Positions 8,805-53,931 are shown, counted from the stretch's first letter. The stretch is 64,000 nt of DNA from Deltaproteobacteria bacterium (GCA_040218735.1 JAVJQW010000055.1:32001-96000); one strand, 5' to 3'. Translations and numbers: made by a program. The notes: a model not told the origin generated them from the sequence alone.

Positions 8805-8833
8805 CGCAACGAGTGAGACGCGTGACCCGATAA
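8805..8833 (+). promoter_or_regulatory. sigma-28-like promoter candidate (CGCAAC-N15-CCCGATAA)
   Basis: -10 resembles the FliA consensus GCCGATAA; same architecture recurs at 24412-24441(-), 24457-24486(+) and 53903-53931(+). Confidence 0.55.
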
Positions 8834-8896
8834 GCTGGTCGTTGGTTTCGGGTGCCCAGGACGGCGCCTGGCCAACCACCGAAGGAGAAGCGTCCC

Positions 8897-9094
8897 ATGA
8901 GCTCGTTCATCCAGCAGTACAACCGTGACTCCGCCTTCATGCGCCTCGAGCGCGCGCGCTCGGCGACGCAGGAAGCGTCGTCGCGCTCGATGGAGGCCCA
9001 GCACATCATGGAGGGCCTCCTGAACATGGGCATGAAGCTCGGCGGGATGCTCCTCGGGATGCTCGGGAGCTGCGCGGGCTGCGCCGGCATGTAA
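8897..9094 (+). CDS. Small 65-aa protein, Met/Gly-rich hydrophobic C-terminus ending GSCAGCAGM
   Basis: Strong SD GAAGGAG at 8881-8887, ATG 8897, high-GC3 codon usage, TAA stop. Confidence 0.75.
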   Translation: MSSFIQQYNRDSAFMRLERARSATQEASSRSMEAQHIMEGLLNMGMKLGGMLLGMLGSCAGCAGM

Positions 9095-9119
9095 AGGCGC
9101 GCTAAGCTGACCGTCCCGC

Positions 9120-9626
9120 ATGAAGGACGACATTCTCGAGCAGATCGGGAAGTACAAGGCCCCGACCAAGCTCCCCAAGATCTCGCGGATCGCCCTCGCG
9201 CTCTACGAGGACGGCGGCTTCGAGCTGAACGAAGAGGCGGTGCTCGCGCTGCGCCTCGAGCTCGAATCCTACGAGGGCGACCTCAAAGCCCTGACCGACG
9301 CGAACATCGGCCTCGGTGTGTTCGCGCTCTACCTGCGCGACACCGAAAAGAAGCCCGAGCAGGCCGAGATGATCGCGGCGCTCATCCGCGAGACCGCGCC
9401 GAAGTACCAGTCGATCGGTGAGCGCATCGTCTCGGCCCTCCAAGACCTCGCGGTCAACGCGAAGGAGCTCCTCGATAAGTTCTCCGACCGCGACGACGCC
9501 GCGAAGGCACGCGCGCCGGTCTACGGCGAAGCTGGCCCCGAGGGGTCGCTCCCGCTGAAGAACCTGAAGCCGGTCGGCGAGCCGCCGCCGCGTCGCAACG
9601 TCAAGAAGCCGAAGCCGAAGTCGTGA
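9120..9626 (+). CDS. Hypothetical helical protein (168 aa)
   Basis: Clean ORF with host-like codon usage; stop overlaps the P450 start (GTGA). Confidence 0.75.
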   Translation: MKDDILEQIGKYKAPTKLPKISRIALALYEDGGFELNEEAVLALRLELESYEGDLKALTDANIGLGVFALYLRDTEKKPEQAEMIAALIRETAPKYQSIGERIVSALQDLAVNAKELLDKFSDRDDAAKARAPVYGEAGPEGSLPLKNLKPVGEPPPRRNVKKPKPKS

Positions 9627-10945
9627 AGCGAAAGCGCCCGCCGGGCCCCACGTGGTTCACCGAGGCCCGTCGCCCGTGGGACGCGATCGTCTCCGACCAC
9701 ACCCGCGGCCTGCTCCCGATCGTGCGCAGCCGCTTCGAGCGGTTCGGCGATCTCGTCTACGCGACCGACATCACCGGTAAGCCGCTCATCTCGATGCGGC
9801 ACCCCGACCACGTCCACGAAGTGCTCGTCACACGCGCCGCCGACTTCACGAAGCGGAGCAAGGACCTCGAGGTGTTCCTCGGCCGCGGGTTGCTCACGAG
9901 CGACGGGGAGTTCTGGCGAAGCCAGCGCCGCAAGATCCAGCCGGCGTTCCGTCACGAGAAGCTCGCGAAGTACGCCGAGATCATGGTCGACCGCGCGCGC
10001 CGCATGGTCGACGGCTGGGTCGAGGGCGAGCTGTACGATCTCAACCGCGAGATGATGGAGGTGACGCTCTCCGTCGTCGCGAAGGCGCTCCTCGACTACG
10101 ACACCACCGACGACAACGACCACGTCGCGCGCGCGATGACGATCATCCAGGAGACCGCGGGCTACCCGAGCATCCTGCCGCGCTGGGTGTCGACGCCGCT
10201 GCACAAGAAGCAGCAGGAGGGGCTCGATGCGATCGACGGCATCGTCTTCCCGCTGATCGACGAGCGCGAAGTACCGGGCGAAGACCTGTTGTCGCAGCTC
10301 AAGTTCCCGGAGGAGGGGGAGTCGATGGAGCGTCAGCAGCTCCGCGACGAGCTCGTCACGATGTTCCTCGCGGGCCACGAGACGACCGCGCTCGCGCTGA
10401 CGTGGACGTTCTTCCTGTTGTCGAATCACCGGGACCAGGAGGCGAAGCTGCACGCAGAGCTCGACGAAGTGCTCGGTGACCGAGCGCCGTCATTCGCGGA
10501 CCTCGAGTCGCTCGTGTTCACGAAGAACGCGGTGCAAGAGGCGATGCGGTTGTTCCCGCCGCTGTACTTGTTGCCGCGCGTCGCGGTCCGCGAGACCGAG
10601 GTCGGCGGTTATCCGCTCGCCGCGGGCGACAACCTCCTCATCTGGATCTACTTCATGCACCGCGACGAGCGCTGGTTCCCGGACCACGCCGAGTTCCTCC
10701 CCGACCGCTTCCTCCCGGAGTCGGGCGGCGTGAAGCACCCGCACGCGTTCATCCCCTTCGGCGCCGGGCCGCGCGCGTGCATCGGGCGCCACTTCGGGAT
10801 GGCCGAGGCGACGCTGATGCTCGCGGTGATCGCGCAGCGCTTCAAACCGCGGCTCGCGCCGGGGCAAGAGGTACGCCTGCACGCTCGCGTCACGCTCGCG
10901 CCGCAGTTCCCGATCGAGATGGAGCTGGAGCCGAGACACCCCTGA
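9623..10945 (+). CDS. Cytochrome P450
   Basis: AGHETT I-helix, EAMR (ExxR), PDRF, FGAGPRACIG heme-cysteine motif. Confidence 0.96.
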   Translation: MKRKRPPGPTWFTEARRPWDAIVSDHTRGLLPIVRSRFERFGDLVYATDITGKPLISMRHPDHVHEVLVTRAADFTKRSKDLEVFLGRGLLTSDGEFWRSQRRKIQPAFRHEKLAKYAEIMVDRARRMVDGWVEGELYDLNREMMEVTLSVVAKALLDYDTTDDNDHVARAMTIIQETAGYPSILPRWVSTPLHKKQQEGLDAIDGIVFPLIDEREVPGEDLLSQLKFPEEGESMERQQLRDELVTMFLAGHETTALALTWTFFLLSNHRDQEAKLHAELDEVLGDRAPSFADLESLVFTKNAVQEAMRLFPPLYLLPRVAVRETEVGGYPLAAGDNLLIWIYFMHRDERWFPDHAEFLPDRFLPESGGVKHPHAFIPFGAGPRACIGRHFGMAEATLMLAVIAQRFKPRLAPGQEVRLHARVTLAPQFPIEMELEPRHP

Positions 10946-11745
10946 TGCTGGAAGGTGTCTCGAAGACGGCGCTCTTCACGCTTCGCGCGCGCGCGGAGGA
11001 GCACGGGCGCGCCGACCGTCGCTTCGCGGATCCGGACGCGGTCGCTTGGCTCGAAGCGCTCGGGTGGCCGGACGAGTTGTCGAAGTTCTACTCGGCGTGG
11101 ATCCAGGCGAAGACCGCGATCCGCACGGTCCAGATCGATCGCATGGTGCGGCTGTGTCAGGAGCGCTTCGAGGTCACGCAGATCGTCGAGCTCGCTTGTG
11201 GGTTGTCGTCGCGGCGTCAGCGCCTGGGGTTCGAGGGGGCGTGGCTCGACGTCGACTTGCCCGCGGTGATCGCGGCGCGCACGTCGCTCGGGATCGAGGG
11301 GAGCGAACAGCTGGCTGCGTCCGCGTTGGATTTGTCTTGGATCGACCACGTCGAAGTGCCCGACCAGACGATCGTGATCGCGGAGGGCCTCGTCTACTAC
11401 CTGCCCATCGAAGATGTCGACGCGCTGTTCACGAAGATGCGCGAGCGCATCGCGGGTGCGGTCGTGGTGCTCGACGTGATCGGCGAGCTCGACTTCGACG
11501 CAGCGAAGCGCTTCTCCGCGCGCCTCGACGCGCCGATCCACTGGGCCGTCGCGCCCCCATTCGAAGCCGCGATGGATGCGATGGGGCTCGACACGATCGA
11601 AGGCCTCGAACCCGACGTGGTGCTCGACGAAGCGCTCTCAGAAATCCGAGGTTTGCTTCGGCCGGTGCTGTCGACGTTCGCCCGCGTCGGTGTGTTTCGT
11701 GATCGTCGAAGTGGAACCATGGTCGGTCGACTCCGCGCGACCTGA
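10945..11745 (+). CDS. Class I SAM-dependent methyltransferase (LCM/TcmP-like)
   Basis: VSKTALFTLRARA, FADPDA, IVELACGLSSR, DVDLPAVI, IAEGLVYYL; ATG overlaps the P450 stop. Confidence 0.85.
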   Translation: MLEGVSKTALFTLRARAEEHGRADRRFADPDAVAWLEALGWPDELSKFYSAWIQAKTAIRTVQIDRMVRLCQERFEVTQIVELACGLSSRRQRLGFEGAWLDVDLPAVIAARTSLGIEGSEQLAASALDLSWIDHVEVPDQTIVIAEGLVYYLPIEDVDALFTKMRERIAGAVVVLDVIGELDFDAAKRFSARLDAPIHWAVAPPFEAAMDAMGLDTIEGLEPDVVLDEALSEIRGLLRPVLSTFARVGVFRDRRSGTMVGRLRAT

Positions 11746-11852
11746 CGGCTGCACCCGTCACTGACGGATCGAACCCTCAGCGCCTTCGGGTTTCGACGTC
11801 GAGTCGCGACTGCGATCGGACGCTGGCCCCGGCGTTGCAATTCAACTTGCGC

Positions 11853-12161
11853 ATGGATGGACTACGCTTCCCGCTGCTCGCGGCCGTCTTGTTCACGGCC
11901 GCCGGCGCAATCACTACCGGCTGTCAAAATTCTGATGCAGAGCTCCAAGCGACCAAGCGCGCCGAGCTTCGGCGCAATTGTCTCGCTCGCTACGACGACG
12001 AGTCGATCCGCGGCGCACGGACCGAGCTCGCGGAGCTGATGCAGAAGGGCGAGCTCGAGCCCGAAGAGTGCCGAAACCGCGGCGAGCAGCTGGAGTCGAT
12101 CGACATCGTCGACTCGATGCTCATCGACGAGATGCCCGAAGAGCTGGAGGTCGAGCGATGA
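11853..12161 (+). CDS. Small putative lipoprotein
   Basis: Signal peptide ending ITTGC; stop overlaps the next ATG. Confidence 0.65.
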   Translation: MDGLRFPLLAAVLFTAAGAITTGCQNSDAELQATKRAELRRNCLARYDDESIRGARTELAELMQKGELEPEECRNRGEQLESIDIVDSMLIDEMPEELEVER

Positions 12162-13984
12162 AGACCATGCTGTTCACCATCGCCGCGCTGACGCTCGTCG
12201 CGAGCCAGGCCGACGCGCAGTGCCTCACCGCGACCGAGCGCAACGCGTTCGAGACCGACGTGCGTCGCCTCCTCGGGACGAGCACGCTCAACAACCACGA
12301 GCTCCACCAGCACGTGTTCTCGCGGCTCGGCTTCGGCCACAACCCGGTGCGCGGGGACGCCTACGACCGGACGTCGACCGCCCAGCGCGCCGCGCTCGCG
12401 GAGCTGATCGCCACGCGCCTGTACCAGGGACGGAGCCTCCGGAGCTGGGTCGCGCAGCGCCTCGCGGGGTTGTCGGATCCGGCGCGCAGCGCGCCGCACT
12501 CGTCGTTTGTGTATCGCGCCGCGGACCAGACGATTCACGAGGCGTACACGGAGGTCCGAAACGCGAGCCTCGAGATCTCTCGGCTCAAGACCGTGCTCGC
12601 GAACGAGACGGACCCGGCGCGGCAAGCGCGCTTGCGGGACCGGATTCGCACGGCGCAGCAGATTCGATCGCGCATCAACGCCGACTCGCGCAACGCCGCC
12701 GCCGCCTATCGCATCGCGCTGATGACGAGCGCGCCGAACGTGGCGATCGGCGACCAGATCCACGAGTTCTGGCGCAACCACTTCAACATCGACGCGACGA
12801 AGACGTCGTGGGCCTCCGTCGACTACGACCGCACCCTCAAGCGGAACCAGTGCGGCACGTTCTACGAGCTGCTCGAGGCGTCGGCGAAGCACCCCGCGAT
12901 GCTGATCTACCTCGACAACTTCCGTTCGCGCCGCGGGCGCATCAACGAGAACTACGGGCGCGAGCTCCTCGAGCTGCACACCCTCGGCGACGACACACTC
13001 CAGTTCTACACGCAGGAGGACGTCGTCGACGCGGCCAACGCGCTCACCGGATGGGGCATTCGATTCACGGAGGTCACGCCCGGCGAGCACACGGCGGAGT
13101 TCGAGTTCTACCAGGGCGGCCACGTCGCCCGGGAGCTCGTGCTGTTCGACACCGCGCCGAAGGGGCGCGCGTTGACGCTCCCCGCGATCGTCAACGGCAG
13201 CGGCAACCCCACCGACGAAGCCGTGCAGCGCGGCGAGGCGCTCCTCCGCTACCTCGCGAACCACGGCTCGACGAAGCGTCACATCTGCAAGAAGCTGTCG
13301 ACCTGGCTGCTCGGCTACCGCGACTCGACGTCCATTCAAGGCTGCGTCGACGTCTGGGGTGAGGACGGCGACCTCGCGGCGATCTACCGCTACTTCCTGA
13401 CGCGGCCCGAGCTGTTCCACAGCAACGGCGCCACGCGCACCACGTTCCAGAACAAACAGCGCAACGCGCAGGAGCTCGTGGTCGGTGCCTACCGTGCCGC
13501 GGGTCGCCCGGTGTTCGACCTCGCGAACATTCGCCGCATCATGACCACCTCCGCGGAGCTCGGCATCCCGCCCGCGCGTTACCCGCCGCCGACCGGCTAC
13601 GACGACGGCAACGTGCACCTCTCACCCGGCGTCTTGATCGCGTACAGCGCGTTCCTGCACCAGTACCTCGACCCGACGAACCTGAGGCTCGAGCTCGCGA
13701 GCGGCACCCTCCGCGGCGAAGCGCTCGAGCAGTGGGTTCGGGATCGGCTGGTCAACGCCAACGCCGCGCCGACCGGAGCCGAGCGCAACGAGCGACTCCT
13801 CGCGCTGAGCGATCGCCTCGTGCGCGACGTCTACAAACAGTTCGGGCTGCCGGGCCGGAAGGCGCGCGCGCTGCACTACGCCTTCAACGAAGCGGACGTG
13901 AAGGACGACGACGGCACGACGCCGGACCCGTTCCGCACGCACTTCCATCTGCTCCTGGGACATCTGTCCGCCATGAAGAAGTGA
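12158..13984 (+). CDS. DUF1800 family exported protein
   Basis: FWRNHFN, HPAMLIYLDN, INENYGRELLELHTLG, YTQEDV, ALTGW; signal peptide; GGAGG SD. Confidence 0.88.
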   Translation: MKTMLFTIAALTLVASQADAQCLTATERNAFETDVRRLLGTSTLNNHELHQHVFSRLGFGHNPVRGDAYDRTSTAQRAALAELIATRLYQGRSLRSWVAQRLAGLSDPARSAPHSSFVYRAADQTIHEAYTEVRNASLEISRLKTVLANETDPARQARLRDRIRTAQQIRSRINADSRNAAAAYRIALMTSAPNVAIGDQIHEFWRNHFNIDATKTSWASVDYDRTLKRNQCGTFYELLEASAKHPAMLIYLDNFRSRRGRINENYGRELLELHTLGDDTLQFYTQEDVVDAANALTGWGIRFTEVTPGEHTAEFEFYQGGHVARELVLFDTAPKGRALTLPAIVNGSGNPTDEAVQRGEALLRYLANHGSTKRHICKKLSTWLLGYRDSTSIQGCVDVWGEDGDLAAIYRYFLTRPELFHSNGATRTTFQNKQRNAQELVVGAYRAAGRPVFDLANIRRIMTTSAELGIPPARYPPPTGYDDGNVHLSPGVLIAYSAFLHQYLDPTNLRLELASGTLRGEALEQWVRDRLVNANAAPTGAERNERLLALSDRLVRDVYKQFGLPGRKARALHYAFNEADVKDDDGTTPDPFRTHFHLLLGHLSAMKK

Positions 13985-13994
13985 GGACGAAGCC

Positions 13995-15293
13995 ATGACC
14001 ATCGATAGACGACGATTCATTCAGCTCTCCGGTCTCGGCCTCGCGAGCCTGGGCCTCGGCGCCATCCCGCGGCGTGCGTTCGCCGCGGACAACGACCAAG
14101 TGCTCCTGACCGTGTTCCTGCGCGGCGGCGCGGACGGCATGTCGCTGCTCCACCCGCAGGTGGGGACACCGATGCGCGCGGTCTACGAGACGTGGCGCGG
14201 CAACGCGACGCGCGTCGCGAACAGCATCCCGATCGGGGGCCGCCTCGCGATGCACCCCGCGCTCGCGCCGCTGCAGACCGCGCTCGACAACCGTCACTTG
14301 ATGCTCCTCGGGGGCGTCGGCGGGGCGGCCTTCAACCGGTCGCACTTCGAGCAGCAAGATCTGGTCGAGACCGGCGCAGGCCCGGCGCAGACCCCGCGTC
14401 CCACCGGAGTGCTCGGTCGCGCGCTCGCGTCCCTCGGTCGCGCGGATGGCGTCCTCTCGGGAATCTCGCTCAACGCGACGCCGCCCGAGTCGATCAAGCA
14501 GGCCGGCAACCCGGGGCTGTCGATGCCGGACGTGCGGCGGTTCGGAGCGCTGCGTAGCGCGACCCACGCAAACGATCCGGACTACGACCTCGCGGAGCGC
14601 ATGCGGCGGCTCTACGTGCCCGGCAACGGCATGTGCAACCCAGGCGCGGTGATGTGTGAGAACGGTCGGCGCGCGTCGAGTGCCATCGAGGACATCGCGT
14701 CGCTGCGTGACACCGCGGGCGTGCCGAGCCGTGGCAAGGCGGCGAACCTCGGCGAGGTGCTGACGGACGTCGCGCAGCTCGTCGCGGCCGACAGCGCGAA
14801 CGCGTTCAAGTTCCTCACGCTCGACGTGGGTGGCTGGGACACGCACCTGGATCAGGGGAACGACGCGGTCTCGGGCTCGAGCTTCTCGGGCACGCTCGCG
14901 GGCAACCTGAACCGGCTCGCGGGGGCCCTGGCGACGTTCTACGGGGAGGCCCGGGACCTGGGCGTTTGGAATCGGATGAACGTGCTCGTCCTGACGGAGT
15001 TCGGTCGAACCACGCGGCAGAACGGGACCGGCGGTACGGACCACGGCTTCGGCGGGACGGCGCTCCTCATGGGGAGCGGTCTGTCGCGGAAGATCATGGC
15101 GCCCGGCTACTTCCCGAACAACACGTCCGCGGCGTTCTACGGCCAGGCAGAGTCCGAAAACGTGCTCCCGAGGCTGATCGAGCACCGGCACGTCTTCGCG
15201 GAGGTCCTCACCGAGCGGATGGGCGTCGACAACCTGGGCTCCGTCTTGTCGGGATTCTCGCTGGATCCGGCGATTCCGCGTTTCTACGGCTGA
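13995..15293 (+). CDS. DUF1501 family protein, Tat-exported
   Basis: DRRRFI twin-Arg signal, VFLRGGADG, NRSHF, GGWDTH, TEFGRT, GTDHG. Confidence 0.9.
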   Translation: MTIDRRRFIQLSGLGLASLGLGAIPRRAFAADNDQVLLTVFLRGGADGMSLLHPQVGTPMRAVYETWRGNATRVANSIPIGGRLAMHPALAPLQTALDNRHLMLLGGVGGAAFNRSHFEQQDLVETGAGPAQTPRPTGVLGRALASLGRADGVLSGISLNATPPESIKQAGNPGLSMPDVRRFGALRSATHANDPDYDLAERMRRLYVPGNGMCNPGAVMCENGRRASSAIEDIASLRDTAGVPSRGKAANLGEVLTDVAQLVAADSANAFKFLTLDVGGWDTHLDQGNDAVSGSSFSGTLAGNLNRLAGALATFYGEARDLGVWNRMNVLVLTEFGRTTRQNGTGGTDHGFGGTALLMGSGLSRKIMAPGYFPNNTSAAFYGQAESENVLPRLIEHRHVFAEVLTERMGVDNLGSVLSGFSLDPAIPRFYG

Positions 15294-15331: not shown

Positions 15332-16663
<1,332 letters not shown>

Positions 16664-19833: not shown

Positions 19834-19924
19834 GATCGCTGTTGAGATCGGTCGAACGAATGGCGGGCTACACTCACGCCTCGACGTGAGCCGCCCGGTC
19901 GTATCGGCCGGGTCACGGCGTGCC

Positions 19925-21241: not shown

Positions 21242-22054
21242 GTGACGTCACCGTTCGTCCTGGAGCTCGACGGTCTCGAGCTGGAGTGCATCAACGACAT
21301 GGAGGGCGGCTTCCTGCGCGCCGACGTCGAGACCTACTTCATGGGGGGCATCGAGCTTTCGTCGGGCGCGACGGTGTTCGACGTGGGCGCGAACATCGGC
21401 GCCTTCACCGCCGCGGTGTGGTCGCGGTTGGGCGGTGACGTTCGGGTGTTCAGCTTCGAGCCCATGCCTCCCATCCGGGAGGTGCTGGAGCGCAACGTGG
21501 CGTCGCAGATGTCGGACGTCGTGACGGTGATGCCGTGTGGGCTCGGCGCCGAGGCGGCGACGCTCGACTTTTCGTACTTCCCGGGGATGACGGTGCTGTC
21601 CTCCGCGCTGCGGGACGAGGCCGCGCTCGAGGCCGAGCGGGTCCGCCTCGTGAAGACGGTGATGACGATGATCGACGAGGGGCGCGCGTATCCGTTGCTG
21701 CGCCCGCTCCCGCGTGAGCTCGTCGAAGCGATCGTGGAGGGGCACGTCATGCACATGACGCAGCCGCGGAAGTACCCGGCGACGATTCGCACCTTCGAAG
21801 AGGTGCGTTCCGAGCTCGGCGTGGAGACGATCGACCTGCTGAAGATCGACGTCGAGGGCGCGGAGCTGTCGGTGCTCGAGGGGGTCGACGACTGGAGCGT
21901 CGTGCGCCAGGTCGCGATGGAGGTGGAGCACTTCGAGGAGCGTTCGCCGATCGTGCAGGCGCAGCTGAGCGCAGCGGGCTTCGAGGTGTCGCTCCGCCAG
22001 GACGCCGTGGAGCGCTCCGGCGACTACGGCATGGTCTACGCTAGGCGCGTTTGA
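21242..22054 (+). CDS. FkbM family methyltransferase
   Basis: VFDVGANIG, SFEP, IDLLKIDVEGAE. Confidence 0.92.
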   Translation: MTSPFVLELDGLELECINDMEGGFLRADVETYFMGGIELSSGATVFDVGANIGAFTAAVWSRLGGDVRVFSFEPMPPIREVLERNVASQMSDVVTVMPCGLGAEAATLDFSYFPGMTVLSSALRDEAALEAERVRLVKTVMTMIDEGRAYPLLRPLPRELVEAIVEGHVMHMTQPRKYPATIRTFEEVRSELGVETIDLLKIDVEGAELSVLEGVDDWSVVRQVAMEVEHFEERSPIVQAQLSAAGFEVSLRQDAVERSGDYGMVYARRV

Positions 22055-24401
22055 TCGCGACCGAGCCGAGCGGCGCGAGCGACACTTCGATCGAGTACGG
22101 CTTGCCGTGCCACGGCGTCTTCTCCGCGGTGATCGCGGCGCCGTCCGGCTTCACGTGTCCGCCGTACTTTTGGTCGTTGGTGTCGAGCACGACGCGGTAG
22201 TCGCCCGGGCGGTCCACGCCGATGCGGTAGCGCTGGTGCTCGACGCCCCCGACGTTGTGTACGAACAACATCGGGTCGTCCTTGCCGCGCGCGAGGCCCA
22301 CCACACCATTGTCGGTGTCGCGGAACGTGTTCGCGAAGGCGGCCGGATCGAACTGGTCTACGTGGAGCGCCGGCTCGTCGATGTACAGGCCGTTGAGGTC
22401 GGCGACGAGGCGCTGCATGCCGCGTTGACGATCGTCGAGGTGCTCGGTCTGGAGCCCCTGGCGGAAGTCCCACTCGCTGCGCTGCGCGTGCTCCTGGCCC
22501 ATGAACAACAGCTTGTGCCCCGGGTACGACCACATGAAGCCGTAGAGGAGGCGGAGGTTCGCCGCCTTCTGCACGTCGTCGCCCGGCATCTTGTTGAAGA
22601 GCGAGCCTTTCCCGTGCACGACCTCGTCGTGGGAGAGCGAGCAGACGAACTGCTCGGAGTGGGCCCACATGAAAGTGTTGGTGAGGGTGTCGAGCTTGCC
22701 GCCCCGCCACATCGGGTCCTCTTTGAAGAACTCGAGCGTGTCGTGCATCCAGCCCATGTTCCACTTCGTGTCGAAGGCCAGGCCGTCCTTCGAGGTTACG
22801 CCGGGGAACGACGTCGACTCTTCTGCGATGCGCATGACGCCGGGGAAGCGCGCCTGCACGAGGTTGTTCGCCTTCTGGATGAAATCGATGGCTTCGAGGT
22901 TTTCGTTGCCGCCGAATTCGTTGGGGATCCATTCCTCGCGGGAGTAGTCGCGGTAGAGCATCGACGCGACGCCGTCCATGCGGACGCCATCGAAGTGAAA
23001 CTCCGAGAGCATGTGCTGCAGGCTCCCGAGCAGGAACGTACGAACTTCATTGCGTCCGTAGTTGAAGACTCTGGTATTCCAATCGCGCTGCTCGCCGAGG
23101 CGATCGTCTTCGTGGTCGAACAGGTGCGTGCCGTCGAAGCGCGCGATGCCGCCGCCGTCCTTCGGGAAGTGACCCGGCACCCAGTCGAGGACCACGCCGA
23201 TGCCGGCGGCGTGGAGTTTGTCGACGAGGTACTTCAGGTCGTCGGGCGAGCCGTGACGCGAGGTCGGCGCGTAGTAGCCGGAGACTTGATAACCCCATGA
23301 GCTGTCGAGCGGGTGCTCCATCAGCCCGAGGAGCTCGACGTGCGTGAAGCGGTGCTCCTCGAGATACGGGACGAGCTCGTCCGCGATCTCGCGGTAGCTC
23401 ATCGTCCGCTCCGCGGGGACCTCGTGGAGCTCGCGTGGGACGTCGTCGAGGTGGTTCAACGACTCGTGCGGTTTCTGGCGCCACGACGCGAGGTGGAGCT
23501 CGTACTTGCTGACGGGGCTGTGTTTCGGGTCCGTCGTCCGGCGTGTCTTCATCCACGCTTCGTCGTTCCATTCGAACGAATCGGCGCCGACGGTGACCGA
23601 GGAGGTCTCGGGGCGGACGGCGCTCTGTTTGGCGAACGGATCCGACTTGTAGTTCACGCCGCCCTGGCCATCGACGACGCGGAGTTTGTAGCTCGCGCCC
23701 GCTCCGACTCCCGGGACGAAGACCTCCCAGAGGCCGGAGTCACCGAGGCGACGCATGGCGTGTTGGCCATCGGCCCAGCCGTTGAAGTCACCGACGACCG
23801 AGATGCCTTGCGCGTTGGGCGCCCAGGTCACGAACGAATAACCGTCGACGCCGTCGACCGTGCGCGCGTTGGCGCCGATGTGTTTCGAGACGTTCTTGAG
23901 CGTGCCCTCGTTGAAGAGCCAACGCTCCTGCTCGCCGATCGTCACTTCGAAGCGGTAGGCGTCCTCGACCCGAACCGTTCGGCCGTTGGCGCCGAGGGTT
24001 TCGAAGCGGTGGTCCGCGGGGCGCTGGCGGCCGGTGAGGACGGCTTCGAACAGCCCGCCGCCGAGGTGGGCCATGGGGATACGTTTGGTCGTCCCGCCGT
24101 CGGCGTACGCGAGCGCGCACACCTGCTTGCCGGGGAGCATCGTGCGGACGACGGTACCCGTCGTCCCGTCGGGCAGCGCGATGTCGTGCACGCCGAGCTG
24201 GGTGTGCGGATCCGGGTGCCGCCCCTCCGCGAGCTGCGCGCGCGTCACCGCGTTCAGCGTGCCCTCGCCCTGAATCGGCAGGTGGCGCTGCGGGGCGATC
24301 GGTCCGGAAGGGGCGGAGGTCTTCTGTGGACGGGTTCGCCCTAGGCCCGCGGCTGAGGACCGGACCAGAAACCCTTGTCCCTGAGGGATCCTCCGTAACA
24401 T
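22041..24401 (-). CDS. glgB: 1,4-alpha-glucan branching enzyme with short N-terminal extension
   Basis: WAPNA..VGDFNGW, SWGYQ, DWVPGHF, RMDGVASML, AEES, KWNMGWMHD, SHDEVVHGK; ATG 24401. Confidence 0.95.
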   Translation of the reverse strand: MLRRIPQGQGFLVRSSAAGLGRTRPQKTSAPSGPIAPQRHLPIQGEGTLNAVTRAQLAEGRHPDPHTQLGVHDIALPDGTTGTVVRTMLPGKQVCALAYADGGTTKRIPMAHLGGGLFEAVLTGRQRPADHRFETLGANGRTVRVEDAYRFEVTIGEQERWLFNEGTLKNVSKHIGANARTVDGVDGYSFVTWAPNAQGISVVGDFNGWADGQHAMRRLGDSGLWEVFVPGVGAGASYKLRVVDGQGGVNYKSDPFAKQSAVRPETSSVTVGADSFEWNDEAWMKTRRTTDPKHSPVSKYELHLASWRQKPHESLNHLDDVPRELHEVPAERTMSYREIADELVPYLEEHRFTHVELLGLMEHPLDSSWGYQVSGYYAPTSRHGSPDDLKYLVDKLHAAGIGVVLDWVPGHFPKDGGGIARFDGTHLFDHEDDRLGEQRDWNTRVFNYGRNEVRTFLLGSLQHMLSEFHFDGVRMDGVASMLYRDYSREEWIPNEFGGNENLEAIDFIQKANNLVQARFPGVMRIAEESTSFPGVTSKDGLAFDTKWNMGWMHDTLEFFKEDPMWRGGKLDTLTNTFMWAHSEQFVCSLSHDEVVHGKGSLFNKMPGDDVQKAANLRLLYGFMWSYPGHKLLFMGQEHAQRSEWDFRQGLQTEHLDDRQRGMQRLVADLNGLYIDEPALHVDQFDPAAFANTFRDTDNGVVGLARGKDDPMLFVHNVGGVEHQRYRIGVDRPGDYRVVLDTNDQKYGGHVKPDGAAITAEKTPWHGKPYSIEVSLAPLGSVAIKRA

Positions 24402-24411: not shown

Positions 24412-24441
24412 TTATCGGCGGGTCCCACCTGATGATGTGCG
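24412..24441 (-). promoter_or_regulatory. sigma-28-like promoter candidate for glgB (CGCACA-N16-GCCGATAA)
   Basis: Perfect GCCGATAA on the minus strand at 24412-24419, 10 nt before the glgB ATG. Confidence 0.6.
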
Positions 24442-24456: not shown

Positions 24457-24486
24457 CGCACACCTAGACCGACGCGGAACCGATAA
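24457..24486 (+). promoter_or_regulatory. sigma-28-like promoter candidate for glgA (CGCACA-N16-ACCGATAA)
   Basis: Mirror of the glgB-side site; 11 nt before the glgA ATG. Confidence 0.58.
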
Positions 24487-24497: not shown

Positions 24498-26633
24498 ATG
24501 AACCCGCTTCGTCTGGGGCGTAGGAACGCCACCCGCCTGGAAGGCGGCACAGATGAGACCCCACGCACGCAGACCGGACGTCGCGGTCCCCACCTCGCGG
24601 TCACCGACGCGTGGACGCGCGCCGGCGGTCCGCAGATCGTCCGTTCGCTTCAAAAGAACGTCGGCGAGGCGGCCGGCGCCGCGGCGGTCCTCGCGCAGGC
24701 GCAGTTCAAGCAGTCGACGCACGTCGAGATCCCGAAGTCGGGGCCCGTCACGGACCAGCTCCTCGCGTTTCACCAGACGCGTCCGCCGGCGTCGGTGCGC
24801 AAGCAGCTCGATCGCCTCGCGTCGACGGAGCTCCATCGCCTCTTCGATCACCCGGTGCGCGACGCCGCCATCCGCGAGCACGCCGAGCTGGACCTCCGCA
24901 CGGTGCACGGCGCGTCGGACGCCGAGGTCGCGGCGGCGAGTGGTCGCCCGGAGATCGCGCTCCGTGAGGAGCAGAACCAGCGGCGCAACGCGCTGATCGT
25001 CGCGCTGTCGCGCCCGCGGATCTCCGACGGGTTCGTGAAGGCCGCGATCGAGAAGCTAGGTGAGGTCGGTCTGGTCGATGACGTCGCGCTCATCGCGAAG
25101 GCCGCGCGTCGCCGCGGGCCCGAGGTCGCCGAGGCAGCGAAGGTCGCGAAGACGAAGATCGAGAAGGCCGGCCGCATGACGATCGTCCTCGCCGCGTTCG
25201 AGTCCAAGCCGTACGTGAACGGCGGCGGGCTCGGTAACGTGATGAAGGAGCTCCCGCCCGCGCTCGCGCGTCAAGGTCACAAGGTTGTGGTGGTGATGCC
25301 GCGGCACTCGGTGATCGATCGCAGCCAGCTCGAAGAGACGGGCGAGGTCGGCACTGTCTACGGCCCGAAGACCGAGCAGTTCGGCCTGTTCAAGGACCAC
25401 CGCGAAGGCGTCGACTACTACTTCGTCGAGAACGACCGCTACTACTCGAGCGGGCGCGACGGCGTGTACCGCGACTCCTACGGCGACTACGGTGACCCCT
25501 TCGAGCGCTACGACTTCTTCGGTCGCGCGCTGCCGGTCGCGATTCGCCACATCCTCGGCGACGAGGCCCCAGACGTCGTGCAGCTCAACGACGCGCACAC
25601 CGCGTCGGGCGCGATGTATCTGAAGCGGGATCCCGCCTTCAAGGACACCGCCACCGTCATGGCGATCCACAACCTCGGTTGGGCGTACCAGGGGCGCTAC
25701 GAGGGGGCGAAGGCCGAGAGCTCACCGATCGGCGACCTCGGGATGTACTACCCGACGGGCCCGGCGGAGGCCTACGGTCAGGTCAACCTGATGAAGCTCG
25801 GGCTCGCCGAGTCGGACGGTGCGATCACCGTCAGCCGTCAGTACATGCAGGAGACGTTGACGGAGGCCGGCGGCGAAGGTCTGCACGGCGTGCTCCAGAA
25901 CATGCGCGCGAACGACAAGTTCTGGGGGAACCTCAACGGCATCGACAACGCCGCCTGGAACCCGGAGACGGACCCGCAGATCGCGGCCAACTTCTCGTTC
26001 GAGGATCAGTCCGGCAAGGCAGCTTGCAAGGCTTCGCTGCAGCAGCAGTACGGCCTCCCGGAGCGGTCCGACGTCCCGCTGTTCGGGGTCGTGGCGCGCA
26101 TGTCCGGTCAGAAGGGCATCGACGACATCATCGGTACCGCGCGTCGCGCGCTGGAAGCCGGCAAGGACCTGCAGCTCGTGGTGTGCGGGGAGGGCGAGGA
26201 AGCCATCCGCGATCAGATGAAGCAGCTCGCGGCCGACTTCCCGAAGAACGTCGCCTACGACGGCAAGTTCGCGCCCGAGAAGGAGCACACGATCCTCTCC
26301 GGCAGCGACTTCTTCCTGATGCCGTCACGCTTCGAGCCGTGCGGCCTCCCGCAGATGTACGCGCTCCGCTATCTGACCGTGCCCGTCGTGCGCGGCGTCG
26401 GCGGTCTCGAGGAGAGTATCTCCAACTTCGACGCGAACACCGGCGAGGGGAACGGCTTCAAGTTCACGGACGATCTGTTCGGCACGGTGGAGCGCGCGCT
26501 CGACTGGTACGGGCAGGGCGAAGAGGCGCGGCAGCCGCTGCTCGCGAACTGCGCTGCGTCCGACTTCTCTTGGGACAACGCGTCGGCGCTGGAGCAAATC
26601 GCGTTCTACCGGAAGATCATCAACGAGCGCTGA
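24498..26633 (+). CDS. glgA: Glycogen synthase (GT5) with ~225-aa N-terminal extension
   Basis: GGLGNV, IHNL..YQG, LNGID...WNPETD, ARMSGQKG, MPSRFEPCGLPQ, VGGL; GT5 domain starts near MTIVLAAFE. Confidence 0.9.
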   Translation: MNPLRLGRRNATRLEGGTDETPRTQTGRRGPHLAVTDAWTRAGGPQIVRSLQKNVGEAAGAAAVLAQAQFKQSTHVEIPKSGPVTDQLLAFHQTRPPASVRKQLDRLASTELHRLFDHPVRDAAIREHAELDLRTVHGASDAEVAAASGRPEIALREEQNQRRNALIVALSRPRISDGFVKAAIEKLGEVGLVDDVALIAKAARRRGPEVAEAAKVAKTKIEKAGRMTIVLAAFESKPYVNGGGLGNVMKELPPALARQGHKVVVVMPRHSVIDRSQLEETGEVGTVYGPKTEQFGLFKDHREGVDYYFVENDRYYSSGRDGVYRDSYGDYGDPFERYDFFGRALPVAIRHILGDEAPDVVQLNDAHTASGAMYLKRDPAFKDTATVMAIHNLGWAYQGRYEGAKAESSPIGDLGMYYPTGPAEAYGQVNLMKLGLAESDGAITVSRQYMQETLTEAGGEGLHGVLQNMRANDKFWGNLNGIDNAAWNPETDPQIAANFSFEDQSGKAACKASLQQQYGLPERSDVPLFGVVARMSGQKGIDDIIGTARRALEAGKDLQLVVCGEGEEAIRDQMKQLAADFPKNVAYDGKFAPEKEHTILSGSDFFLMPSRFEPCGLPQMYALRYLTVPVVRGVGGLEESISNFDANTGEGNGFKFTDDLFGTVERALDWYGQGEEARQPLLANCAASDFSWDNASALEQIAFYRKIINER

Positions 26634-26645: not shown

Positions 26646-27026
26646 ATGACCTGGGACTTCTCGATCAATCTGCCGCCGCTTCCGCCGCCGGAGCTCCCGG
26701 ACCCGCGCGTCGAGCAGGCGCGCCAGGCGCCGGGCACCCAGGGGCTCTCCGACAACGTCCTGCGCATGGTCTCCAACATGGAGGACATCGCGAACGCGCA
26801 GGCCTTCATGGCCGACTTCCAGCTCGGGCAGGGGCGCGAGGATCGCGCGGTCGCCGCGTTCGGCCAGGCGATCGTCGCGCTCTCGCACATCGCGGACCCG
26901 CGCGAGCGCTTCCACGCGCAGACGCGTGTGTTCAACCGCGTCGATCGAGACGCGCAGCAGTACGGCGCACGTCGTCTCGCCGACGCCGTCCGCCAGGCGC
27001 GCGTCGCGCGCATGAGTCAGCAGTAG
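26646..27026 (+). CDS. Hypothetical protein (126 aa), Pro-rich N-terminus
   Basis: GAGGGG SD, 12 bp after the glgA stop, host-like codon usage. Confidence 0.7.
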   Translation: MTWDFSINLPPLPPPELPDPRVEQARQAPGTQGLSDNVLRMVSNMEDIANAQAFMADFQLGQGREDRAVAAFGQAIVALSHIADPRERFHAQTRVFNRVDRDAQQYGARRLADAVRQARVARMSQQ

Positions 27027-28344: not shown

Positions 28345-28416
28345 GGCTTCGGAGCCGCCCGAGCGGGGCCGACAGGGCTTGAAAGAGCGCCCCTGAGGAC
28401 TCCGATGTACATTGAG

Positions 28417-45391: not shown

Positions 45392-46025
45392 GCAAGACAG
45401 GTTGCAAGGGTCCGGGCTCACGCATCGAAGGTATCATCGAGCTCTCGAAACGCGATTTGGCGCAGCTGGAGGATGACGGTCCGACACGTGCGAGGACGCG
45501 CAATACGGACCGTCAGCGTCCGAAGACGAGTCCAAGTCCAAGAACTTCGAAATGCGCTGCGTTCGTCGAGCAGATGGCCCGGACAGGGCCCTTGATTCCG
45601 TCAACCCCCAAGAGAGAAAAAGAAACCGCTTCTGCAACTCAACTTGCGCGACCGGCCATCCCCCTTGACCAGCCGGCGAATCTCACCGGTTCATCGCAGC
45701 CCTCGACCGCCGCCGGCGCAATCCTCCGACGCTCAATCCGGTGGTCTCGTGAACGCGTCGAAGTCGGCGTGGATTACTCGCGGGCAAAGCCGCGAAGATC
45801 CATCTGGAGGATGACCGCGCAGCGAGCGCGACGTGGGGAGCATGGCGAGTGCCGCCGACCATCGAGCGGAGCCTCCCGCCGTCCTCGTGCCTACGTGGAG
45901 CGCGGAGCGCGCGGGCCGGCGCGGCACTTCGGTTTCGGGCGATGGGTCCAAGGCGCGTCGGGCGCTTCCTTCCCCGCCTACGGCCTTTCCATGTGGTCAG
46001 GTCCGCTAAATGAATGGCCTTGGCG

Positions 46026-48771: not shown

Positions 48772-48809
48772 CGTTGCGCGCGACGTCGCTCCGCTTGGAC
48801 AATGATCGC

Positions 48810-49982: not shown

Positions 49983-51388
49983 TCCTCGTCATCCCGTTCG
50001 CGCTCTACATGTTCGCGACGAAGAAGCCGCCGAAGGCGGCGATGATCGTCTGCGTCGGCGTGATGATGTGGGGCCCCGAGAGCGTGTGGATTCGCATCCC
50101 GAGCACGCCGATCCTCAACTTAGTGAACGTCCCGGCCCTCGGGGGGCTCCTCGGCGTGTTCCTGTTCATGAACAAGGCGTTCATGAAGGCGCGGCCGGGC
50201 CGCGGACCCGAGGCGTTGATGTGGCTCAGCCTCCTCGCGTCGCTCGCGACCTGGAAGACGAACACCGACGTGCAGATCTTCGGCACGTGGATCCAGACGG
50301 TGCTGCCGGGCCTCACGTTCGTCGACGGCATGTCGATGGGCCTCGACCACGTCTACCGGCTGATGTTCCCGTTCCTGGTCGGGCGCATCGTCTACCAGAA
50401 CGGCGACGACCTGGAGACGGGCCTGAAGCTCTTCGTCGTGATGGCGCTGATCTACGTGTTCCCGATCCTCGTCGAGCTGAAGATGAGCCCGCGGGTGCAC
50501 GAGTGGATCTACGGCTACGCGGCGTCGAGTGACTTCCTCGCCGTCCTCCGTTGGGGCGGTTACCGCCCGATGGTGTGCATGCCGAACGGCCTCGCGCTGT
50601 CGCTGTTGATGCTGCAGATGTTGATGGCCGCCGCCGCGTTCCAGCGCGCGGGGATTCGCGTCACGAAGCGCATGAAGAACAAGACGGTGACCGCGGTGCT
50701 CTCCGTCATCCTCGTGCTCTGCAAGTCGACCGGCGCCATCATGTACGGTCTCGTCTTCATCCCCCTCATCCTGAAGGGGAAGCTGAAGAGCCAGCTCCGC
50801 CTCGCGACGATCCTCTCGGTCATCGCGCTCAGCTACCCGACACTCCGCGCCGCCGACCTCGTCCCCGTCGACGACATCCTCGCGGTCGCCGAGTCCATCA
50901 GCAAGGACCGCGCAGGTTCACTTGCGTTCCGTTTCAAGAACGAGAAGCTCCTCGGCGACAAGGCGCGCGAGCGGTTCTGGTTCGGTTGGGGGAGCTACGG
51001 GCGCAACTCGATCTACCACGACGAGATCGGCAAGGAGATGACCATCGCCGACGGCTACTGGGTCATCCTCCTCGGCGTGCGCGGCTTCGCGGGGTTTGCG
51101 TTGTCGTTCGGGCTCGCGCTGTGGCCGGTGTTCGTCGCACGGAAGGTGGTGCCGCGAATCGAGAACCCGAGGGATCAGTGGTTACTGGGCACGCTGTCCC
51201 TCATCGTGGCCGTGTCGATCTTCGACCTGATCCCCAACGGCCTCTTCACGAACTACAACTACTTCCTGTCGGGGATGTTGTACGGCGCGTGTAAGGCGCT
51301 CGATCCGAAGGGCCCGATTCAGCGCCGTCGCCGCCGCACCAGCCGGCCGTCGCCGGCGGCCGGGACGCCCGCCGCGCATCGCGGTTGA
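49937..51388 (+). CDS. O-antigen ligase / Wzy-like polysaccharide polymerase
   Basis: Many TMs; GGYRPMV, CKSTGA, RAGSLAFRF.NE, FGWGSYGRN, DGYWVI. Confidence 0.75.
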   Translation: MQISPYHGNFAAFALILVIPFALYMFATKKPPKAAMIVCVGVMMWGPESVWIRIPSTPILNLVNVPALGGLLGVFLFMNKAFMKARPGRGPEALMWLSLLASLATWKTNTDVQIFGTWIQTVLPGLTFVDGMSMGLDHVYRLMFPFLVGRIVYQNGDDLETGLKLFVVMALIYVFPILVELKMSPRVHEWIYGYAASSDFLAVLRWGGYRPMVCMPNGLALSLLMLQMLMAAAAFQRAGIRVTKRMKNKTVTAVLSVILVLCKSTGAIMYGLVFIPLILKGKLKSQLRLATILSVIALSYPTLRAADLVPVDDILAVAESISKDRAGSLAFRFKNEKLLGDKARERFWFGWGSYGRNSIYHDEIGKEMTIADGYWVILLGVRGFAGFALSFGLALWPVFVARKVVPRIENPRDQWLLGTLSLIVAVSIFDLIPNGLFTNYNYFLSGMLYGACKALDPKGPIQRRRRRTSRPSPAAGTPAAHRG

Positions 51389-52204
51389 TCAGCGGTCGGT
51401 GAGGAGGCGCTTCAGGCCCTTCTTCGCACCGTGGTACGCCTTGCGCAGCTCGCGCTGCGTCTTCTCGATCGGCATCAACACGTTGCCGCGGAACTTCTCC
51501 TCCGGGCGCGCCTTGAAGACCGTCGTGTGCGCCTCGCCGGTCCAGCTCGCGGGCGCTTCCTTCGTGTAGTAGTACGCCGCGAACGACTTGCGCTCGACGC
51601 CCGGCGGCGTCGTCACCGGCTGCACGCCGTGGAAGCTGATCTCGCTCGTCTCGAAGATCAGGCAGTGGTTGAGCTTCGGCGGGATCGCGGCGTGCCGGTT
51701 CTGCACTTCCTTGTCCCACAGCTCGACCGCGCCACCCCAGGCGTCGTCCCACTCGGGGTTGAGGTAGATGAGGATGTTGAGCCGTCGGTGCAGCTCGTCT
51801 TCTTCGATGTAGTTGAAGTCGACGTGCACATCGAGCCGCCCGCGCGGCCCCGTGACGTGGATGCCGCCGCCGCGGAGCGCGTCGTCGGCGAGGAGGTTGT
51901 CGATGCCCGTGATGCGCTCGAGCTTGCCGAGGAACTCCGGTCCGGAGATCGCGTCGCTGAGTTTCTTCACCGCCTCGGGGAAGCGATCGGATTCGCAGAG
52001 CTGGACCTTGCCCATCTCGTTGACCGCCGTGAACGCGCGGCCGCCCTGGTTCTTACTCCATTCGAAGGACGGCATCGCGGCCGCGACCTCTCGGGCGAAG
52101 TCCTCTTCGAGGAACGGGTGGATGTGAATCCACGGGAAGGGCTCGGCCGAGCGAAACTCCTGCGTGAGGCGGTCGACATCGAGCGGCTTGATCAGCGTGC
52201 TCAT
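51389..52204 (-). CDS. 2OG-Fe(II) oxygenase
   Basis: AEPFPW, GGGIH, LDVHVDFN, RRLNILIYLN, WGGAVELW, SFHG, RKS. Confidence 0.9.
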   Translation of the reverse strand: MSTLIKPLDVDRLTQEFRSAEPFPWIHIHPFLEEDFAREVAAAMPSFEWSKNQGGRAFTAVNEMGKVQLCESDRFPEAVKKLSDAISGPEFLGKLERITGIDNLLADDALRGGGIHVTGPRGRLDVHVDFNYIEEDELHRRLNILIYLNPEWDDAWGGAVELWDKEVQNRHAAIPPKLNHCLIFETSEISFHGVQPVTTPPGVERKSFAAYYYTKEAPASWTGEAHTTVFKARPEEKFRGNVLMPIEKTQRELRKAYHGAKKGLKRLLTDR

Positions 52205-52302
52205 CGGTTGCACCAGGGTGTTGCAGTCGCGTCGTCAAAGCAACCGGGTTCGTCACCGCGGTCGCTCGGAATACAAGCGCCTGTGCTACGGTCCCGCCCC
52301 GA

Positions 52303-53766
52303 GTGAGCGAGACCGCGAGCGTTCCGGATCCCTCGTCCGACAAACCGAGCATGAGGCGCCGCGCGATCCGCGGGAGCGTCGTCGCGGCGGGCGGGCAGGG
52401 CGTGAGCATGGTGCTCCGGTTCGCCTCGAACTGGATGGTCGCGCAGCTTCTGCTGCCGGACATGCTGGGCCTCGCGGGCACCGTGAACGCCGTCGTCCTC
52501 GGTCTGCAGATGATCTCCGACATCGGTGTTCACCAGAACATCGTGCAGCACGAGCGCGACGACGACGCCTTCACCGACACCGCGTTCTCCGTCAGCCTCC
52601 TCCGCGGCATCCTCCTGTTCCTGATGGGCTGCGCGCTCGCGTACCCCGCAGCCTGGTGGTACGAGCGCCCCGAGCTCGCCGCGCTGCTCCCCTTCACCGC
52701 GCTGAGCGCGCTCCTCAACAGCGCGATGCCGACCAAGTACGCGCGTTTGTCGCGCGACATGGAGCTGGTGCGCCTGACGCTCCTCAACCTCGGCTCCCAC
52801 GCGATCGGCATCGCCGTGATGGTGGCCTACGCCTACGTGTTCCGGTCGGTCTGGGCGCTGGTGCTCGGCGCGGTCGTGACCGCGGGGGCGAAGTGGTTCC
52901 TCTCCGTCGTCGCGATCCCCGGCCGCATGAATCGGTTCGCTTGGGAGCCGGAGGCGGTCCGCGACCTGATCAACTTCGGCAAGTGGGTCTTCCTCAGCAC
53001 GCTGCTGATGTACGTGTCGCGCCACTTCGATCAGCTGGTGATCCCGAAGCTCGAGAACATGGGGGTGGCGGGGGTGTACGGCATCGCGGTGAGCCTCGCG
53101 ATGACGCCGCTGTTCCTCGGCGGCGCGGTGATCGGCCAGGTGTTGTTCCCCGCGCTCGCGGAGTCGAAGCGTGTCGACGCGGAGACGTTCCAGCGACGCT
53201 TCGACAAGGCGCGCAACGTGATGCTGCCGCTGCACATCTACGTCTGCGCGGGTGTCGCGCTCGGGTCGGCGCCGCTGATCCGCATCTACAAACCGGTCTA
53301 CGCCGACGCCGCGTGGATGTGTCAGCTGCTCACGCTGTCGATGTGGTTCCAGTATCTGCAGGAGGCGTGGACGCAGGCGCTCGTCGCCGTCGGTGATACC
53401 CGCTCGCAGGCGATCTCCAACGCGGTGCGCGTGGTGATCATGGTGCCGCTGATCCTGATCGGCTTCGAGGTCGCGGAGGTCCCCGGGTTGATCCTCGGCG
53501 GCGCGCTCGGTGCGATCTCCGGGTACGCCGTGGTCGGGTGGCGGATCCGACGTCTCGGTTTGCGAGTGTTCGGTCCCGATACGAAGGCGTTCTTCGTGTT
53601 CGTCATCCTCGCGGGCGGCGGTGCGTACGCGCCGTACGTGATCGCCGAGCAGACCGGCGTCGACGCGCTCTGGCCGCAGCTCGGCATCGGCGGCGCCATC
53701 GGGGTCGCCCTCAGCGCGTACCTCTACGTGAAGGTTCTCCCGCGCCTCCGCGGCAGCGCGGCGTAG
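52303..53766 (+). CDS. Oligosaccharide flippase (Wzx/MOP family)
   Basis: RAIRGS, QLLLPDMLGL, SDIGV, FGKWVFLS, FDQL, GVYGIA; many TMs. Confidence 0.88.
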   Translation: MSETASVPDPSSDKPSMRRRAIRGSVVAAGGQGVSMVLRFASNWMVAQLLLPDMLGLAGTVNAVVLGLQMISDIGVHQNIVQHERDDDAFTDTAFSVSLLRGILLFLMGCALAYPAAWWYERPELAALLPFTALSALLNSAMPTKYARLSRDMELVRLTLLNLGSHAIGIAVMVAYAYVFRSVWALVLGAVVTAGAKWFLSVVAIPGRMNRFAWEPEAVRDLINFGKWVFLSTLLMYVSRHFDQLVIPKLENMGVAGVYGIAVSLAMTPLFLGGAVIGQVLFPALAESKRVDAETFQRRFDKARNVMLPLHIYVCAGVALGSAPLIRIYKPVYADAAWMCQLLTLSMWFQYLQEAWTQALVAVGDTRSQAISNAVRVVIMVPLILIGFEVAEVPGLILGGALGAISGYAVVGWRIRRLGLRVFGPDTKAFFVFVILAGGGAYAPYVIAEQTGVDALWPQLGIGGAIGVALSAYLYVKVLPRLRGSAA

Positions 53767-53902
53767 ACGTCGCAGGTCACCAACCCACGGCGGGCGCAAA
53801 CGCCAGGACGGGGAGGTCGAACGTCGCGCCCGTCGTTCGAGCTGGTCATCTCACGCGGCGCCGCGAGAAGCGCAGGTTGTCTTGCGAAGCGCGCGAAGGA
53901 GC

Positions 53903-53931
53903 CGCAACTCGAGCGCCCCCGGCGCCGATAA
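53903..53931 (+). promoter_or_regulatory. sigma-28-like promoter candidate (CGCAAC-N15-GCCGATAA)
   Basis: Perfect GCCGATAA at 53924-53931, 7 nt before an in-frame GTG. Confidence 0.6.

Follow-up and report, generated by a model that had tools for sequence, protein, structure and literature searches.

The -10 element of promoters read by sigma-28 has the consensus GCCGATAA (PMC12784957, PMC8325347), and in the published open complex on the fliC promoter of Pseudomonas aeruginosa this octamer lies at positions -15 to -8, with the -35 element TCTAAAG at -36 to -30 (PMC12784957). The -35 half is loosely kept; in the table of Escherichia coli FliA sites obtained by chromatin immunoprecipitation with sequencing, it varies (TAAAG, TCAAC, TGCAG, and others), and some of the bound sites do not have TAAA (PMC4183435). 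Factors of the sigma-28 clade also run programs other than motility: TTAAG-N16-CCGATA is reported for 92 of 140 attack-phase promoters of Bdellovibrio bacteriovorus (PMC3627812), and WhiG is linked to sporulation in Streptomyces and to type IV pili in Rubrobacter (PMC8325347). Here, we analyzed a 64-kb stretch of DNA from a Deltaproteobacteria bacterium (JAVJQW010000055.1:32001-96000, hereafter the window). A preliminary description of this stretch had noted four copies of a sigma-28-like motif, CGCA-N17/18-nCCGATAA, ahead of non-flagellar genes, and had pointed to the non-motility programs of the sigma-28 clade, for which the reports above bear it out. We found that the four copies are placed non-randomly and form a two-part motif that is conserved in one relative, and that three of the four genes behind them are set up as leaderless or near-leaderless, a point absent from that description.

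Other promoter systems also bear on the comparison. Extracytoplasmic function (ECF, group 4) sigma factors, of which large myxobacterial genomes hold dozens, read promoters with the layout GnAAC-N16/17-CGT. In the leaderless genes of high-GC bacteria such as Actinobacteria and Deinococcus, a -10 element of the housekeeping type, TANNNT, stands just upstream of the start codon. During glycerol-induced sporulation of Myxococcus xanthus, sigB is reported to rise 50-fold and sigC 140-fold, and the gene for ADP-glucose pyrophosphorylase is upregulated (PMC2875238). In the literature, judged mostly from abstracts, we found neither the present motif nor any sigma-28-type regulon of Myxococcota described; one paper on FliA and Myxococcota concerns Peredibacter.

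Four copies of a two-part motif lie in intergenic DNA

A gene map of the window was made for this analysis from frame plots of the GC content at third codon positions (GC3) and from Pfam matches, leaving an intergenic remainder of 2750 nt (4.3% of the window). With both strands counted, CCGATAA occurs exactly four times, at 8827-8833 (+), 24418-24412 (-), 24480-24486 (+), and 53925-53931 (+), here called sites 1 to 4, and every copy is intergenic. Each heptamer is preceded by the tetramer CGCA, at a distance of 18 nt for sites 1 and 4 and of 19 nt for the other two; the hexamer that this tetramer opens is CGCAAC in the first pair and CGCACA in the second. With the base preceding the heptamer included, sites 2 and 4 both carry the -10 octamer GCCGATAA, site 1 carries CCCGATAA, and site 3 carries ACCGATAA; the degenerate formula of the two-part motif is CGCAMM-N15/16-NCCGATAA, the spacer being 15 nt at sites 1 and 4 and 16 nt at sites 2 and 3. 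Every site is directed at a gene, with the end of the box 63, 10, 11, and 7 nt before the start codon at sites 1 to 4, respectively. Sites 2 and 3 point outward within the 96-nt gap between glgB and glgA. The coordinates, strands, intergenic position, and start-codon distances in the preliminary description were thereby reproduced.

The number of heptamers is in itself ordinary. Shuffled windows contained 1.97 copies on average, and 10 of 100 contained at least four. As the preliminary description had expected, the signal lies in the position of the copies: an intergenic-composition model predicted 0.164 intergenic copies against the four observed (Poisson P(>=4) = 2.6e-5). Among all 7-mers of the window, CCGATAA (with its complement) is the sole one having at least four copies that are all intergenic. 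The shared upstream CGCA was also hard to obtain at random: none of 20,000 shuffles of the four upstream 30-mers produced any 4-mer common to all at the same offset (+/-1), and the two-part pattern at fixed spacing gave two matches against 0.01 expected. Of the 13 intergenic segments that measure 40 nt or more, 3 contain the sites. The intergenic status of site 4 depends on the choice of GTG 53939 over TTG 53882 as the start codon of the gene behind it, and homologues favor GTG 53939.

The window was then scanned with a weight matrix, in which the four sites score 22.5-26.6 bits; these values are circular, the matrix having been trained on the same sites. No fifth site appeared in the window, where the next score was 17.2 bits, and 20 shuffled windows peaked at 13.6-19.9 bits. 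Several further candidates were set aside. When the scan was relaxed to tolerate a total of one mismatch, a single extra match appeared, within the gene at 5639-6208, which was taken as chance. CCGATAC at 19907 (-), near the start of a histidine-kinase gene, has no CGCA at the proper distance, and at 8721, where TGACCCGAT occurs a second time, a fitting -35 is missing; both were rejected. ACAGGGC, with three copies that are all intergenic, was dropped because it is rarer overall than expected by chance (3 vs 5.96). Searches of the window for Rfam families and tRNAs found neither, and a hairpin in the leader behind site 1 was no better than those of shuffled sequences (z -1.77).

Three of the four genes are leaderless or near-leaderless by prediction

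The start codons that fix the distances above were examined by comparison with homologues. The start of glgB is backed by the N-terminus MLR, common to homologues of 82% and 70% identity, and that of glgA by conservation from residue 1 in two relatives. For the 184-amino-acid protein encoded behind site 4, the N-terminus is common to four aligned sequences, in which an internal Met (codon at 54122, with a good Shine-Dalgarno sequence) is unconserved. All three genes are without a Shine-Dalgarno sequence (no GGAG-like sequence), which several other genes of the window possess. Under a definition that asks for a backed start, the lack of a Shine-Dalgarno sequence, and a -10 box no more than about 12 nt from the start codon, three of the four genes count as leaderless or near-leaderless.

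Transcription start sites were predicted with the sigma-28 numbering of P. aeruginosa fliC, in which the -10 element occupies -15 to -8; the CGCAAC/CGCACA block then falls at about -37 to -31. For site 1 (8805-8833, +), the predicted +1 is G 8841, so that the leader would be 56 nt long and carry a GGAG Shine-Dalgarno sequence ahead of ATG 8897. At site 2 (24412-24441, -), the predicted +1 is G 24404, which leaves a 3-nt leader before ATG 24401, and at site 3 (24457-24486, +) it is T 24494 or G 24495, leaving 3-4 nt before ATG 24498. For site 4 (53903-53931, +), the predicted +1 coincides with the G of the GTG start at 53939, so that the transcript would be leaderless. A scan of the glg and site-4 intergenic regions with the consensus sequence found no sigma-70-type promoter.

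The boxes are identical in one relative

A scan of a genome collection gave two loci. One of them comes from a 32% GC organism, has CCGATAA inside coding DNA, and was discarded as irrelevant; conservation was assessed in the other (L001), a 4.6-kb contig of a metagenome-assembled genome whose GlgA is 82% identical. Over the whole glgB-glgA intergenic region, 69 of 96 columns are identical between L001 and the window. Both CCGATAA boxes are fully conserved (14/14), followed by the two -35 hexamers (10/12; 6/6 at site 2 and 4/6 at site 3), the two spacers (23/32), and the segment between the -35 elements (8/15). The glgB leader is identical (10/10), and the glgA leader shares 4 of 11 positions. 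If columns are independent, the chance that all 14 box columns would be conserved is about 0.72^14 = 0.01 by our own estimate.

At both sites in L001, the predicted +1 is the G of GCCATG, with a 3-nt leader. Three of the four glg sites thus have the predicted +1 on a G three nucleotides before ATG, and site 3 of the window has it one nucleotide further upstream, on T. Taken over the four window sites and the two in L001, the predicted +1 is a G at five of six, and the -10 heptamer is unchanged at all six while the -35 varies. As far as a comparison with one close relative can suggest, the distribution of identical columns over the intergenic region is a footprint.

Comparison with known promoter classes

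The sigma-28 consensus (TAAA-N15-GCCGATAA) was compared with the motif. The -10 octamer matches at 8/8 positions at two of the four sites and at 7/8 positions at the other two, and the distance to the upstream element and the combination of a dominant -10 with a looser -35 are likewise those of the sigma-28 class. The differences are CGCAAC/CGCACA in place of TAAA, the lack of the flagellar or chemotaxis targets that are typical of the class though not found throughout it, and the abutment of three of the four promoters on a start codon. The label of a sigma-28-like motif therefore held for the -10 half and failed for the -35 half, whose defining TAAA is absent. The upstream block nevertheless occupies the place of the -35 in the described Pseudomonas fliC complex, -36 to -30 (PMC12784957), and the tabulated E. 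coli FliA sites show the same pairing of a strong -10 with a loose -35 (PMC4183435).

Among described regulons, the attack-phase regulon of Bdellovibrio is comparable in that a sigma-28-type box precedes many non-flagellar genes in a former member of the Deltaproteobacteria; it is large and stage-specific. It differs in its A/T-rich -35 (TTAAG); Bdellovibrio is also flagellated and has an identified fliA gene, whereas no flagellar or sigma gene lies in the window. The WhiG regulons resemble the present case in that high-GC bacteria have reused a sigma-28-clade factor for a non-flagellar program, and a link with glycogen has been proposed for them. However, WhiG promoters retain TAAA and belong to another phylum, and no gene for an RsiG-like anti-sigma factor was seen in our window. 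ECF promoters share the two-part layout, a -10 core beginning with CG, and, at two of the four sites, GCAAC; unlike them, the motif lacks AAC at the other two sites, has a long invariant -10, and is not adjoined by a sigma/anti-sigma operon. The leaderless promoters of Actinobacteria and Deinococcus are similar in the -10 adjoining the start, the missing Shine-Dalgarno sequence, and the ATG or GTG start. They differ from the present sites, where the box is of an alternative-sigma type and two of the three leaders would be 3-4 nt rather than zero.

Genes downstream of the four sites

The gene calls agree with the preliminary description in that the targets are non-flagellar; they are glgB, glgA, an operon headed by the gene of a 65-amino-acid protein, and the gene of a small exported protein. 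The glgB gene (22041-24401, -) encodes a 1,4-alpha-glucan branching enzyme of 786 amino acids and glgA (24498-26633, +) a glycogen synthase of 711 amino acids, both assigned by Pfam and NCBIfam. The N-terminus of GlgB is extended by about 50 residues of basic character. The N-terminal region of GlgA, 228 residues long (24498-25181, +), is lineage-specific and well conserved among three sequences, and only two clusters with this extension appeared among the best 8000 candidates scored from a set of 5.8 billion proteins. It is predicted to be all-helical in an AlphaFold2 model that is weak overall (mean predicted local distance difference test score [pLDDT], 56.1) and reaches 70-90 only at residues ~150-225. 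Extra low-complexity N-termini had been proposed for these proteins; GlgB does have an extension, and that of GlgA is not low complexity. As judged by family, both are cytoplasmic enzymes, and nothing in the window points to the substrates of type III or flagellar-type export that had been suggested.

An open reading frame (ORF) for 126 amino acids (26646-27026, +) begins 12 nt past glgA; its GC3 is 0.92, it has no family match in Pfam or NCBIfam, and it is possibly co-transcribed with glgA. Further downstream, ahead of a sigma-54 activator gene with an uncertain start at TTG 28412, CTTGAAA is followed after 17 nt by CCGATGT (28377-28411, +). This is a single case that has CCGAT in common with the four boxes; its CTTGAAA resembles the -35 element of sigma-32 promoters.

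The 184-amino-acid protein behind site 4 (53939-54493, +) consists of an N-terminal region of ~60 residues, a hydrophobic segment, and a C-terminal domain with two helix-loop-helix units. The segment, at residues ~62-82, is signal-peptide-like and closes in a site of the Ala-x-Ala type. The N-terminal ~60 residues (53939-54122, +) are partly conserved; they are overlong for a signal peptide, or else the segment acts as a signal anchor. The helix-loop-helix units come from a weak AlphaFold2 model (mean pLDDT, 50.6), and the name of EF-hand protein was not borne out, there being no EF-hand match in Pfam or NCBIfam even at an E value of 0.1; the resemblance in the model may serve as a lead. Between site 4 and the upstream polysaccharide-biosynthesis gene lies a hairpin (53814-53843, +) with 13-nt arms that are 85% complementary, a 4-nt loop, and no T run, which may mark a transcript boundary.

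The 65-amino-acid protein behind site 1 (8897-9094, +; GC3, 0.9-1.0) is likely the product of the first gene of an operon. It has four small homologues (65-71 amino acids) plus one match of 493 amino acids, and their alignment contains an invariant GSCxGCxG motif at the C-terminus. No Pfam or NCBIfam family matched it, and a comparison with a protein atlas gave just a chance-level match (0.76). Downstream are genes for a 168-amino-acid protein without an assigned function (9120-9626, +), a cytochrome P450 (9623-10945, +), and an S-adenosylmethionine-dependent methyltransferase (10945-11745, +), the last two assigned by Pfam/NCBIfam. Because the genes overlap or are tightly spaced, the arrangement at 8897-11745 suggests that they may share one transcript. 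The layout is reminiscent of myxobacterial clusters, for example of the cittilin type, in which a small peptide is combined with a P450 and a methyltransferase; however, the 65-residue peptide is without an aromatic C-terminal core. The stretch ahead of the site (8730-8800) is AT-rich, with a GC content of about 0.45 in a 69% GC genome, and its minus strand bears a promoter of the sigma-70-like kind (GTGATA, 18 nt, TACAAT). This promoter aims at a gene for an 847-amino-acid protein without an assigned function (6138-8681), that is, away from the site-1 gene.

Host context and other features of the window

The genes of the window include a Ser/Thr kinase, FHA-type sigma-54 activators, a DUF1800/DUF1501 pair, a Skp/OmpH protein, and an HDOD protein, and the GC content is 67-71%. 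This content suggests a Gram-negative, myxobacterium-like organism, the Gram-negative assignment being made because of the sigma-54 activators and the Skp/OmpH protein. At 11978-15293 (+), the genes that come after the DUF1800/DUF1501 pair encode an FHA-domain sigma-54 activator and a Ser/Thr kinase. At 648-2746 (-), an MbnP-family copper-binding protein (TIGR04052, E 1.5e-58) adjoins a di-haem cytochrome c peroxidase (MauG/MbnH-like), a pairing that is already known. About 630 nt at 45392-46025 are without a coding frame signal, an Rfam match, or a tandem repeat, and are flanked by a 320-amino-acid ORF with a weak IscB/HNH-like match (E 0.0023) and by a 575-amino-acid protein with Ig-like domains.

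Discussion

We propose, with a probability of roughly 0.6, that the four copies belong to one promoter class read by an alternative factor of the sigma-70 family, with a sigma-28-type -10 specificity and a different -35. Promoter function, and with it the start sites, the acting sigma factor, and the physiology, is what we infer from the motif, its placement, its conservation in one relative, and the starts behind it. The factor would read nCCGATAA at -15 to -8, and a weaker -35 contact would be made with CGCAAC or CGCACA at about -37 to -31, replacing TAAA. Transcription of glgB, glgA, and the gene of the small exported protein would set in at the start codon itself or 3-4 nt upstream, yielding leaderless or near-leaderless mRNAs, and the promoter of the 65-amino-acid protein gene would yield a 56-nt leader with a normal Shine-Dalgarno sequence. 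Once active, the factor would switch on glgA and glgB, the small-protein/P450/methyltransferase operon, and the envelope protein together, and this set could constitute a stage- or stress-specific program such as stationary phase or dormancy.

If such a class exists, the chance that its factor is a true member of the sigma-28 clade seems to us somewhat short of even; otherwise, it would be another group-3 sigma factor, for example a relative of the sporulation-induced SigB and SigC of Myxococcus. By analogy, a SigB/SigC-like factor is a serious alternative identity, because sigB and sigC rise and the ADP-glucose pyrophosphorylase gene is upregulated during sporulation in M. xanthus. Both of these Myxococcus factors are sigma-32-like.

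Several points weigh against the proposal of a promoter class with its own alternative factor. The TAAA of sigma-28 is missing 15 nt upstream of the octamer, where the slot reads CAAC, ACAT, ACAC, and CAAC at sites 1 to 4 and ACAT and ACAC in L001. Among the ORFs of the window, Pfam and NCBIfam identified no sigma or anti-sigma gene, and the window has no flagellar, chemotaxis, or type III secretion genes. The sites number only four, their -35 was defined post hoc, and the weight-matrix scores are circular. The orientation of the sites is informative at site 4 alone, because divergent genes flank sites 1 to 3. With a single close locus compared, at 72% intergenic identity, the full conservation of both boxes is no more than moderately informative. 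At sites 2 and 3, a strictly leaderless start needs a +1 lying 3-4 nt downstream of the published geometry, because the start codon is 10-11 nt past the box.

The main rival is that the sites are ECF promoters, with GCAAC as an AAC-type -35 and the CGA 17 nt downstream as the -10 core. Sites 1 and 4 do read GCAAC, 17 nt, CGAT, in keeping with the general ECF layout, and a large genome with a myxobacterium-like window would be expected a priori to encode many ECF factors. However, AAC is lacking at sites 2 and 3 and at both sites in L001, which have CGCACA or ACACAC, and the invariant half is the 7-nt -10 block with the -35 as the weaker half, which is usually the opposite of ECF promoters. No sigma/anti-sigma pair adjoins any site, as would be seen at an autoregulated locus though not necessarily at other members of a regulon, and four promoters in 3 of 13 intergenic segments would, if the window is typical, imply a regulon far larger than most of those under ECF control. 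We therefore regard the ECF explanation as unlikely. A housekeeping origin, in which GATAAN is a poor TATAAT-like -10 of leaderless genes, appears very improbable. High-GC leaderless genes do carry a -10 just before the start codon, and GATAAT at site 2 matches TATAAT at five of six positions. Against this, the hexamer is variable at its last position, where T is critical (the window sites have G, T, C, and C, and those of L001 have T and A), the conserved bases reach upstream as CC in the manner of sigma-28 boxes, the -35 does not resemble TTG, no sigma-70-type promoter emerged from the consensus scan at sites 2 to 4, and the motif is present in so few of the intergenic segments.

The heptamer could also be something other than part of a promoter: it might serve a DNA-binding regulator as an operator half-site, or act as an RNA element within a short 5' untranslated region, the true promoters being elsewhere. 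The two glg boxes can indeed be viewed as a distant inverted pair in the 96-nt divergent region, and the box is placed where a translational operator could be. This explanation is nevertheless improbable to our mind, given that the 7-mer is non-palindromic and fixed in orientation toward the gene, that a second conserved element stands at promoter-like spacing, and that no other promoter-like sequence was found in the glg region and no Rfam match in the window. Moreover, the box is not tied to translation starts, because at site 1 it sits 63 nt from the start, ahead of a normal Shine-Dalgarno sequence. A chance coincidence of four AT-containing heptamers in the AT-richer intergenic DNA can draw on the ordinary total count and on the fact that the motif was chosen by eye. 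It is hardly credible beside the Poisson probability of the placement, the uniqueness of the 7-mer, the failure of all shuffles to yield a shared tetramer like CGCA, and the conservation of both glg boxes in L001.

If the window is typical, its four sites per 64 kb would correspond to several hundred promoters in the 11.5-Mb genome. A broader scenario, which we consider possible though doubtful, is that a sigma-28-derived factor, its -35 reading re-specified from TAAA to CGCAMM, drives a large non-flagellar and largely leaderless regulon in a sparsely sampled lineage, probably within the Myxococcota. Such a regulon might couple glycogen storage, the small-peptide/P450 operon, and envelope proteins to a resting or developmental stage, which would make the factor a Gram-negative counterpart of WhiG. 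Should the factor be of the ECF or SigB/SigC-like type instead, the result would be an ordinary yet well-defined new promoter consensus. The four defined promoters offer a handle for finding the factor and the conditions that induce it. If the regulon is real, it would be a further case of flagellar-type sigma specificity reused for a non-motility program, and, in a large myxobacterium-like genome, it would tie both leaderless translation and the synthesis of glycogen directly to an alternative sigma factor.

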